A stretch of 64,000 nt of DNA from Escherichia coli (GTDB lineage: Bacteria; Pseudomonadota; Gammaproteobacteria; Enterobacterales; Enterobacteriaceae), in NCBI RefSeq assembly GCF_003790525.1, contig NZ_CP033635.1, one strand, 5' to 3'. The position numbers and the translations under genes were made by a program. A model generated the notes under the pieces. The model saw nothing but the letters and a program-made list of their open reading frames with translations, was not told the DNA's origin and did not search any database. Positions 3,627-26,168 of this stretch are shown here, piece by piece (the stretch's first letter is position 1; every line of letters begins with the position of its first letter).

Positions 3627-3822
<196 letters not shown>

Positions 3823-3834
<12 letters not shown>

Positions 3835-3885
3835 TCGTTGGCCTCGGTTGATAGAAATATTGGTCGGGGCCTTCGTCTTTCTGAT
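3823..3885 (+). ncRNA. sokB: SokB antisense RNA (antitoxin of hokB/mokB); boundaries approximate
   Basis: Position antisense to the mokB RBS/start as in hok/sok loci; exact 5'/3' ends not determinable by eye. Confidence 0.35.
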
Positions 3886-4108
3886 TCCCGGTTAGCCTGA
3901 AAACAGAAAGTCTCAGGCACCCGTGAGCATCCTATGTGGTTTCCTTAAGGACGAAAATAATCACCTGACGAAATTGCGTGCTGTTTTCCAGAATTTTTCG
4001 TCATTCGGTTTAGCCAGTTTAATCATTCGTTACTCTCTTCATTCCAATGGCATTATTCTTCTCTGCCATAATTGTTGTAAAAATGTGACGCAAAGAGGTT
4101 TTTGGTCG

Positions 4109-4135
4109 TAAGAAATTACCGTCAAGTGCCGATGA
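4109..4135 (+). promoter_or_regulatory. Putative sigma-28 (FliA) promoter for trg: TAAG-N15-GCCGATGA
   Basis: Close match to flagellar class 3 consensus TAAA-N15-GCCGATAA, about 40 bp upstream of the trg start codon. Confidence 0.45.
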
Positions 4136-4174
4136 CTTTCTATCAGGAGTAAACCTGGAAGAGAGACAACGGTA

Positions 4175-5815
4175 ATGAATACAACTCCCTCACAGCGATT
4201 AGGTTTTTTGCATCACATCAGGCTGGTTCCGTTATTTGCCTGCATTCTTGGCGGTATCTTAGTTCTATTCGCATTAAGTTCTGCTCTGGCTGGCTATTTC
4301 CTCTGGCAGGCCGATCGCGATCAGCGTGATGTTACTGCGGAGATTGAGATTCGGACCGGGTTAGCGAACAGTTCAGATTTTTTGCGTTCAGCCCGGATCA
4401 ATATGATTCAGGCCGGGGCAGCGAGTCGTATTGCGGAAATGGAAGCAATGAAGCGAAATATTGCGCAAGCCGAATCGGAGATTAAACAGTCGCAGCAAGG
4501 TTATCGTGCTTATCAGAATCGACCGGTGAAAACACCTGCTGATGAAGCCCTCGACACTGAATTAAATCAACGCTTCCAGGCTTATATCACGGGTATGCAA
4601 CCGATGTTGAAATATGCCAAAAATGGCATGTTTGAAGCGATTATCAATCATGAAAGTGAGCAGATCCGACCGCTGGATAATGCTTATACCGATATTTTGA
4701 ACAAAGCCGTTAAGATACGTAGCACCAGAGCCAACCAACTGGCGGAACTGGCCCATCAGCGCACCCGCCTGGGTGGGATGTTCATGATTGGCGCGTTTGT
4801 GCTTGCCCTGGTGATGACGCTGATAACATTTATGGTGCTACGTCGGATCGTCATTCGTCCACTGCAAAATGCCGCACAACGGATTGAAAAAATCGCCAGT
4901 GGCGATCTGACGATGAATGATGAACCGGCGGGTCGTAATGAAATCGGTCGCTTAAGTCGTCATTTACAGCAAATGCAGCATTCACTGGGGATGACTGTAG
5001 GGACCGTTCGACAGGGCGCGGAAGAGATTTATCGTGGCACCAGCGAAATTTCAGCTGGCAATGCGGACCTGTCATCTCGCACCGAAGAACAAGCGGCGGC
5101 TATCGAACAAACTGCCGCCAGCATGGAGCAACTCACTGCGACGGTGAAACAGAATGCGGATAACGCGCATCATGCCAGCAAACTGGCGCAGGAGGCTTCT
5201 ATTAAAGCCAGCGATGGCGGGCAGATGGTTTCCGGTGTAGTAAAAACGATGGGCGCTATCTCCACGAGTTCGAAGAAAATTTCTGAGATCACCGCCGTCA
5301 TCAACAGTATTGCTTTCCAGACGAATATTCTGGCACTGAATGCTGCCGTTGAAGCCGCGCGAGCGGGTGAGCAAGGACGTGGATTTGCCGTTGTCGCCAG
5401 CGAAGTACGGACACTCGCAAGCCGCAGCGCTCAGGCGGCGAAAGAGATTGAAGGCTTGATCAGTGAATCAGTCAGGTTAATTGACCTGGGGTCGGATGAG
5501 GTGGCAACGGCAGGGAAAACCATGAGCACTATTGTTGATGCCGTCGCGAGTGTCACACATATCATGCAGGAAATCGCCGCCGCCTCGGATGAACAAAGTA
5601 GAGGCATAACGCAGGTTAGCCAGGCGATTTCTGAAATGGATAAGGTGACGCAACAGAATGCTTCTCTGGTAGAAGAGGCCTCAGCGGCGGCGGTGTCCCT
5701 TGAAGAACAGGCGGCACGATTAACTGAGGCGGTGGACGTATTCCGTCTGAACAAACATTCTGTGTCGGCAGAACCTCGCGGAGCGGGTGAACCAGTTAGT
5801 TTCGCTACGGTGTGA
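4175..5815 (+). CDS. trg: Methyl-accepting chemotaxis protein III (ribose/galactose sensor)
   Basis: 546-aa ORF with two TM segments, HAMP domain and conserved MCP signalling domain ([34 protein letters not shown]). Confidence 0.95.
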
Positions 5816-25226: not shown

Positions 25227-26168
25227 ATGGCGATGAATGTATTGCAATCACCTTCACGTCCAGGTCTGGGTAAGGTGTCCTGTTTCTTCTGGCGTAATCC
25301 GGGGCTGGGGCTGTTTTTACTGCTGCTTGGCCCGCTAATGTGGTTTGGCATTGTCTATTTCGGCTCGCTGCTGACGCTGTTATGGCAGGGCTTTTATACC
25401 TTTGACGATTTCACCATGTCGGTAACGCCGGAACTGACGCTGGCGAATATCCGTGCGCTGTTTAATCCGGCGAATTACGACATCATTCTCCGCACGCTGA
25501 CTATGGCTGTGGCAGTCACTATCGCCAGCGCCATTCTGGCTTTTCCAATGGCGTGGTATATGGCGCGCTATACCAGCGGGAAAATGAAAGCGTTTTTTTA
25601 TATTGCGGTAATGTTGCCGATGTGGGCGAGCTACATTGTTAAAGCCTATGCCTGGACGTTATTGCTGGCAAAAGATGGCGTGGCTCAGTGGTTTTTACAA
25701 CATCTTGGGCTGGAACCACTGCTGACTGCGTTCCTTACATTACCTGCGGTGGGCGGCAATACGCTGTCAACTTCCGGGCTGGGGCGCTTTCTGGTGTTTC
25801 TCTATATCTGGCTGCCGTTCATGATCCTCCCGGTGCAGGCGGCGCTTGAGCGTTTGCCGCCGTCATTGTTGCAGGCGTCAGCTGATCTCGGCGCACGTCC
25901 ACGACAAACCTTTCGCTATGTGGTGCTGCCGCTGGCGATCCCGGGTATTGCCGCTGGCTCTATCTTTACCTTCTCACTCACACTGGGCGATTTTATCGTC
26001 CCGCAGCTGGTTGGCCCGCCAGGATATTTTATCGGCAATATGGTTTATTCCCAGCAGGGGGCGATTGGCAATATGCCGATGGCGGCGGCATTCACCCTGG
26101 TGCCGATTGTTCTCATCGCACTGTACCTGGCGTTCGTGAAACGTCTGGGAGCGTTCGATGCACTCTGA
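25227..26168 (+). CDS. ydcU: ABC transporter permease
   Basis: 313-aa multi-TM ORF starting directly after the ydcT stop. Confidence 0.9.

Follow-up and report, generated by a model that had tools for sequence, protein, structure and literature searches.

Positions 4109-4135 of the window (the whole stretch of Escherichia coli DNA that was analysed, 64,000 nucleotides in length) almost certainly form the core of the trg promoter, which is recognised by RNA polymerase containing FliA (sigma-28), with transcription starting at A4142 and being boosted by CRP from a site at 4081-4102. The trg promoter has already been characterised and catalogued in K-12, and there is nothing new about it in this window. 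The gene itself (4175-5815, plus strand) is a 546-codon open reading frame which is annotated in RefSeq and matches the methyl-accepting chemotaxis protein family; its product is the ribose/galactose chemoreceptor. The trg region was found to be 100% identical to that of E. coli SMS-3-5 (NC_010498.1), where it carries the RefSeq label 'methyl-accepting chemotaxis protein Trg', with hokB lying upstream of it and ydcI downstream.

Core promoter and adjacent CRP site

Read directly from the sequence, the motif consists of TAAG (4109-4112), the 15 nucleotides AAATTACCGTCAAGT (4113-4127) and GCCGATGA (4128-4135), and is situated 39 nucleotides from the trg ATG in the correct orientation. It also satisfies the two-octamer geometry of sigma-28 promoters, in the form TAAGAAAT-N11-GCCGATGA, all on the plus strand: the -35 element TAAGAAAT (4109-4116; consensus TAAAGTTT) occupies -33 to -26 relative to the start, the -10 element GCCGATGA (4128-4135; consensus GCCGATAA) occupies -14 to -7, and the two octamers are separated by an 11-nucleotide spacer (4117-4127) which is fixed in length and not conserved in sequence.

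The exact pattern TAAG-N15-GCCGATGA occurred once in the 64-kb window, compared to 0.02 occurrences expected from shuffles, and 10 of the 12 specified positions of TAAA-N15-GCCGATAA were matched by the trg site. A relaxed search for that consensus, allowing up to two mismatches, returned 14 matches in the window against 5.9 expected and was dropped as evidence owing to this lack of specificity. A FliA weight matrix of 28 columns was built from the ChIP-seq sites listed by Fitzgerald 2014 (Table 2), with trg omitted to guard against circularity. The highest score among 127,946 window positions (both strands) fell at 4109-4136, at 16.1 bits with the matrix from all 51 sites and 16.4 bits with that from the 24 strong sites; the same score was attained somewhere in 19 of 100 (51-site matrix) and 9 of 100 (24-site matrix) shuffled windows. 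At the 64-kb scale, the sequence by itself is only suggestive of a FliA site, and the trg site stands above chance because of its position and orientation, its conservation at orthologous loci and the published experiments in K-12.

The first-pass annotation had reported a TAAG-N15-octamer at 4109-4135 and called it a near-consensus FliA promoter. The motif is present exactly as reported and its identity as a FliA promoter is supported by the K-12 data and by conservation, although resemblance to the consensus alone is weak evidence; the reading was also incomplete, in that a sigma-28 promoter was recognised but the adjacent CRP site at 4081-4102 was overlooked.

Elsewhere in the window, the weak FliA ChIP-seq motif GCTGGGAATAAACCATATTGCCGATAAA reported within ydcU of K-12 (fold-above-threshold score 3) recurs without change on the minus strand at 26028-26055; this copy scored only 3.2 bits with the strong-site matrix.

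The wet-lab evidence for the trg promoter comes entirely from K-12. The upstream region of trg in K-12 MG1655 shares 97% identity with the window over a 321-nucleotide alignment containing no indels, and the two are the same in the CRP 22-mer, the -35 tetramer, the -10 octamer, the start region and the leader. Near the core, K-12 has A in place of G4108, just upstream of the -35 element, and T in place of A4113; the latter falls in the 15-nucleotide gap between TAAG and the -10 octamer, within the less conserved part of the -35 octamer, and is the only K-12 difference inside the motif. Further substitutions between K-12 and the window lie upstream of the CRP site. Given this degree of identity, the K-12 findings would be expected to transfer to SMS-3-5.

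The CRP binding site, AAATGTGACGCAAAGAGGTTTT (4081-4102, plus strand), is a 22-mer identical in K-12 and spans -61 to -40 from the start at 4142, its centre being at -50.5 relative to A4142, or at -49.5 when numbered after aer, as Hollands et al. did. It matches the consensus AAATGTGATCTAGATCACATTT at 13 of 22 positions, with a perfect left half (AAATGTGA) and a right half that is poor apart from its T-tract. The TGTGA of the site lies at 4084-4088 and, when checked on the sequences, TG(T/C)GA was found to begin 25 nucleotides upstream of the -35 element in trg and in K-12 aer alike. Hollands 2010 (PMC2859248) reported that CRP shifts a K-12 trg fragment, that a trg::lacZ fusion is activated by CRP (comparing crp-plus and crp-minus cells), and that trg has its CRP site, -35 and -10 elements spaced exactly as in aer, where CRP acts from -49.5. 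Window positions 4081-4102 are the CRP site described by Hollands et al.

It is conceivable, though unlikely, that the FliA promoter is real while the TGTGA/T-tract block does not function as a CRP site here, being instead an UP-like element, for instance, or a sequence bound by some other factor. Such a reading would accommodate the poor right half-site and the overall match of 13 of 22, as well as the placement of TGTGA 1 bp farther from the -35 element in most other genera than in Escherichia, CRP position being critical at aer (Hollands et al.). It fits less well with the 22-mer being that of K-12, for which CRP binding to the fragment and activation of the fusion have both been demonstrated, and with a spacing to the -35 element that equals that of aer. 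Moreover, 71 of the 78 orthologue loci carry TGTGA at 25-26 nucleotides before the FliA motif, far above the background of 0.006, with a conserved T-tract next to it.

A sigma-70-like site on the minus strand (4081-4052; TTTACA-18-AATAAT, 10/12), which overlaps the CRP site, was weighed as a candidate divergent promoter but not retained. The window and K-12 differ in its -10 region, no mapped start corresponds to it in the data of Kim 2012 or Cho 2014, and it is probably a chance match.

Sigma factor use, transcription start and leader

In K-12, a FliA ChIP-seq peak at trg is listed in Table 2 of Fitzgerald 2014 (PMC4183435) with the motif TAAGTAATTACCGTCAAGTGCCGATGAC, a fold-above-threshold score of 23 and a motif centre at 1490443 in NC_000913.2. 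The same study gives trg RNA-seq values of 108 for motile MG1655 but 4 once fliA is deleted, a 27-fold difference marked significant; the published correction to that paper changed no more than a footnote. A full-text literature search for a printed sequence of the promoter returned only Fitzgerald 2014 and its correction. By microarray, Zhao 2007 found trg to be down 2-fold in a fliA mutant and up 2.2-fold upon sigma-F induction, and Hollands 2010 (PMC2859248), testing fliA-deleted cells that did or did not receive FliA from a plasmid, found trg::lacZ to be sigma-28-dependent. The ChIP-seq peak, the loss of trg RNA in the fliA deletion and the sigma-28-dependent fusion bear out the earlier assignment of trg to the FliA-dependent class 3 genes.

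A transcription start for trg was mapped in K-12 by Cho et al. 2014 (PMC3923258), using 5'-triphosphate enrichment, 5' RACE and deep sequencing. Their supplementary tables 4 and 6 place it at 1490461 (plus strand) in NC_000913.2, with 8 reads in stationary phase, and give the upstream 51-mer as AAAGAGGTTTTTGGTCATAAGTAATTACCGTCAAGTGCCGATGACTTTCTA, which ends in GCCGATGACTTTCTA. Coordinates were converted by equating the K-12 trg ATG (1490494 in NC_000913.2) with window position 4175, and the 51-mers were verified to end on the start base itself with the sokB row, which ends at window position 3824, the annotated sokB 5' end. The K-12 start thereby corresponds to A4142 on the plus strand, giving a leader of 33 nucleotides, and is the seventh base after GCCGATGA (8 reads, one condition). 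The first-pass annotation had proposed that a mapped start should lie 5-10 bp past the -10 element, and the K-12 start was found 7 bp downstream of it. The spacing determined at aer by primer extension predicts a trg start at 4141, one base from 4142.

Other start datasets were also searched. The Cappable-seq supplements contained no trg start at these coordinates, the Kim 2012 data held only a 4-read start 586 nucleotides upstream, in the hokB/yncP region, and the ROSE in vitro study was without trg data. The silence of the Cappable-seq and Kim 2012 data at trg may possibly reflect the use of poorly motile strains.

It is very improbable that sigma-70 or sigma-38 polymerase accounts for most of the initiation at 4142, with the FliA dependence being indirect. 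In its favour, the network table of Cho 2014 (PMC3923258), which assigns this start to the trg transcription unit, lists both of these factors by ChIP-chip in the region (sigma binding D/S/F, motif S/H/F) and assigns the start to both S and F. The motif calls in this table are permissive, F being listed at many starts. However, a sigma-70 scan of the plus strand near 4142 revealed no promoter-like site, the only plus-strand match (3788-3816) being one that fits sokB, and the hokB and sokB promoters, both within approximately 300 bp, could explain a ChIP-chip signal of low resolution. In addition, trg RNA is almost gone without fliA, and trg::lacZ was reported by Hollands et al. to be sigma-28-dependent.

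The sigma-70-like promoter at 3788-3816 (plus strand; TTGCCG-17-TATGAT) is followed by a terminator-like hairpin at 3840-3871, and together these fit sokB (region 3788-3880), the antitoxin RNA of the hokB/mokB/sokB type I toxin-antitoxin locus. Both the K-12 sokB 5' end and the start at 1490143 of Cho et al. convert to window position 3824.

Within the trg leader, a purine-rich ribosome-binding region, AAGAGAG (4159-4165, plus strand), ends 9 nucleotides before the ATG, and its GAGAG was the same in every one of the 53 leaders aligned across genera. A putative hairpin, CAGG-AGTAAA-CCTG (4144-4157, plus strand; leader +3 to +16), appeared in both the minimum-free-energy and the centroid folds. 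The E. coli leader folded no better than its shuffles (z = 0.62), and in other genera this part of the leader is occupied by a different short stem, GGCGT...ACGCC (alignment columns 7-12 with 18-23). Explicit pair counting across the alignment gave 77% of cells paired and changes on both sides in only 6 cells, which is weak covariation, while RNAalifold on the aligned trg leaders returned no consensus structure. Due to the lack of an RNAalifold consensus, the weak covariation and the z value, the hairpin is not claimed as a functional element.

An antisense RNA 3' end inside trg has been reported in K-12 by Adams and colleagues (bioRxiv 10.1101/2020.07.18.207399), and is the sole trg entry there. 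If the K-12 position 1493371 is taken as referring to NC_000913.3, this 3' end falls at approximately window position 5076 on the minus strand.

Conservation of the promoter across genera and its loss in E. coli

The Trg-specific N-terminal 200 residues were searched against species-representative genomes, giving 80 loci with 55-88% identity, and the 250 nucleotides upstream of each start were scored with the trg-free matrix. The loci came from Escherichia, Citrobacter, Enterobacter, Lelliottia, Leclercia, Kluyvera, Kosakonia, Trabulsiella, Phytobacter, Pluralibacter, Pseudocitrobacter and Mangrovibacter, among others; none of the 80 loci returned was from Salmonella.

TAAx-N15-GCCGAT was present on the correct strand at 78 of the 80 loci. 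The two exceptions are uninformative and do not constitute contrary evidence: locus L049 (Enterobacter mori) keeps the FliA motif (13.4 bits), displaced from the gene by an insertion of approximately 200 bp, and at locus L060 the promoter position falls in an NN assembly gap. With L049 counted and L060 excluded, the motif was found at all 79 evaluable loci. The median best upstream score was 14.3 bits, with 62 loci scoring at least 12 bits, compared to a median of 1.8 bits and no locus at or above 12 bits for the opposite-strand control, and a median of 1.3 bits and a single locus at or above 12 bits for the coding control (the first 250 nucleotides).

The -10 element was GCCGATGA in 61 of 78 loci and contained GCCGAT in 77, with the non-consensus G at position 7 in 72. 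TAA of the -35 element was near-invariant, while its fourth base was G (47 loci), T (22), C (7) or A (1). The spacer kept its length of 11 nucleotides among genera and varied freely in sequence. Such a pattern of constraint is that expected of a working promoter.

There is next to no likelihood that the FliA match is a chance resemblance with no role in trg transcription: the excess of two-mismatch matches in the window and the recurrence of the matrix score in 9-19% of shuffled windows are outweighed by the presence of the motif upstream of trg at every evaluable locus while spacer and flanks diverge, and by the FliA ChIP-seq peak, the 27-fold FliA dependence and the start 7 bp downstream at the K-12 site.

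The insertion in Enterobacter mori (L049:760-1000) separates the trg start codon from the FliA promoter (L049:724-751) and would lengthen the trg leader greatly in that species. It has what we take to be a resemblance to an ERIC (enterobacterial repetitive intergenic consensus) element. A further locus, L037 (CACSKA010000003.1), is titled 'Chryseobacterium sp. 18061' and carries an enterobacterial trg with 71% identity, whose promoter site is exactly the one found in L079 (Citrobacter sp. 18056); the L037 assembly is probably mislabelled or contaminated.

Among complete E. coli genomes, the trg promoter region was present in 4,499 of 5,426, leaving approximately 17% without it. The deletion, the junction of which was mapped in the urine isolate NZ_CP056114.1, corresponds to window positions 4038-5370 (1,333 bp) and removes both the CRP site and the promoter, along with roughly the first 1.2 kb of trg. 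The deleted segment is that of the known phylogroup B2 trg truncation, the remnant of which encodes the flagellar regulator Tls (PMC12623472). Unlike the B2-type deletion, the trg gene of the window is intact.

Proposed mechanism and comparison with other sigma-28 promoters

In the mechanism proposed here, region 4 of FliA would recognise TAAGAAAT and regions 2/3 would recognise GCCGATGA, across the fixed 11-nucleotide spacer, and transcription from A4142 would produce the 33-nucleotide leader ahead of the trg ATG. Trg would be made only when the flagellar cascade (FlhDC, followed by FliA once freed from FlgM) arrives at its final tier. A cAMP-CRP dimer at 4081-4102, directly upstream of the -35 element, would recruit polymerase and give a higher output, as at aer. 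With a FliA core and a CRP site together, trg would be predicted to require FliA and to gain expression when glucose is scarce. In this strain, as in K-12, trg would be tied to the last flagellar tier and to catabolite control, which matters mainly for annotation.

The conserved non-consensus bases may keep the trg promoter weak enough for it to respond to CRP. We tentatively extend this idea, while considering it somewhat more doubtful than probable, to suggest that the imperfections of the promoter are under selection, such that trg would be a weak sigma-28 promoter acting as a FliA AND cAMP-CRP gate across the Enterobacteriaceae, to which the leader hairpin might add a post-transcriptional layer. 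The suggestion draws on the scarcity of A as the fourth base of the -35 element (1 of 78 loci), on the frequency of G at base 7 of the -10 element and on a CRP half-site fixed 25-26 nucleotides upstream, alongside a spacer that drifts freely.

When compared to the class 3 promoters of tar, motA, fliC, flgM and tsr (TAAAGTTT-N11-GCCGATAA), trg shares the sigma factor, the two-octamer geometry, the GCCGAT core and the position in the cascade, but departs from their consensus in having G at position 4 of the -35 element (4112) and G at position 7 of the -10 element (4134). By matrix score, the trg site ranked 27th-32nd of 52 FliA ChIP sites. Direct activation by CRP also sets trg apart from six other well-characterised sigma-28 promoters, for which it was not observed (Hollands 2010, PMC2859248).

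A close parallel is with K-12 aer, which has the same layout as trg: a CRP 22-mer, 6 nucleotides, the -35 octamer, 11 nucleotides and the -10 octamer. Both promoters have non-consensus core elements, although those of aer (TAAAGATA and GCCGACAT) are unlike those of trg, and the CRP site of aer matches the consensus at 17 of 22 positions compared to 13 of 22 for trg. Transcription starts at the sixth base after the -10 octamer in aer (primer extension) and at the seventh in trg. The footprint observed across genera lends support to the published view of trg and aer as a special, CRP-boosted subset of sigma-28 promoters.
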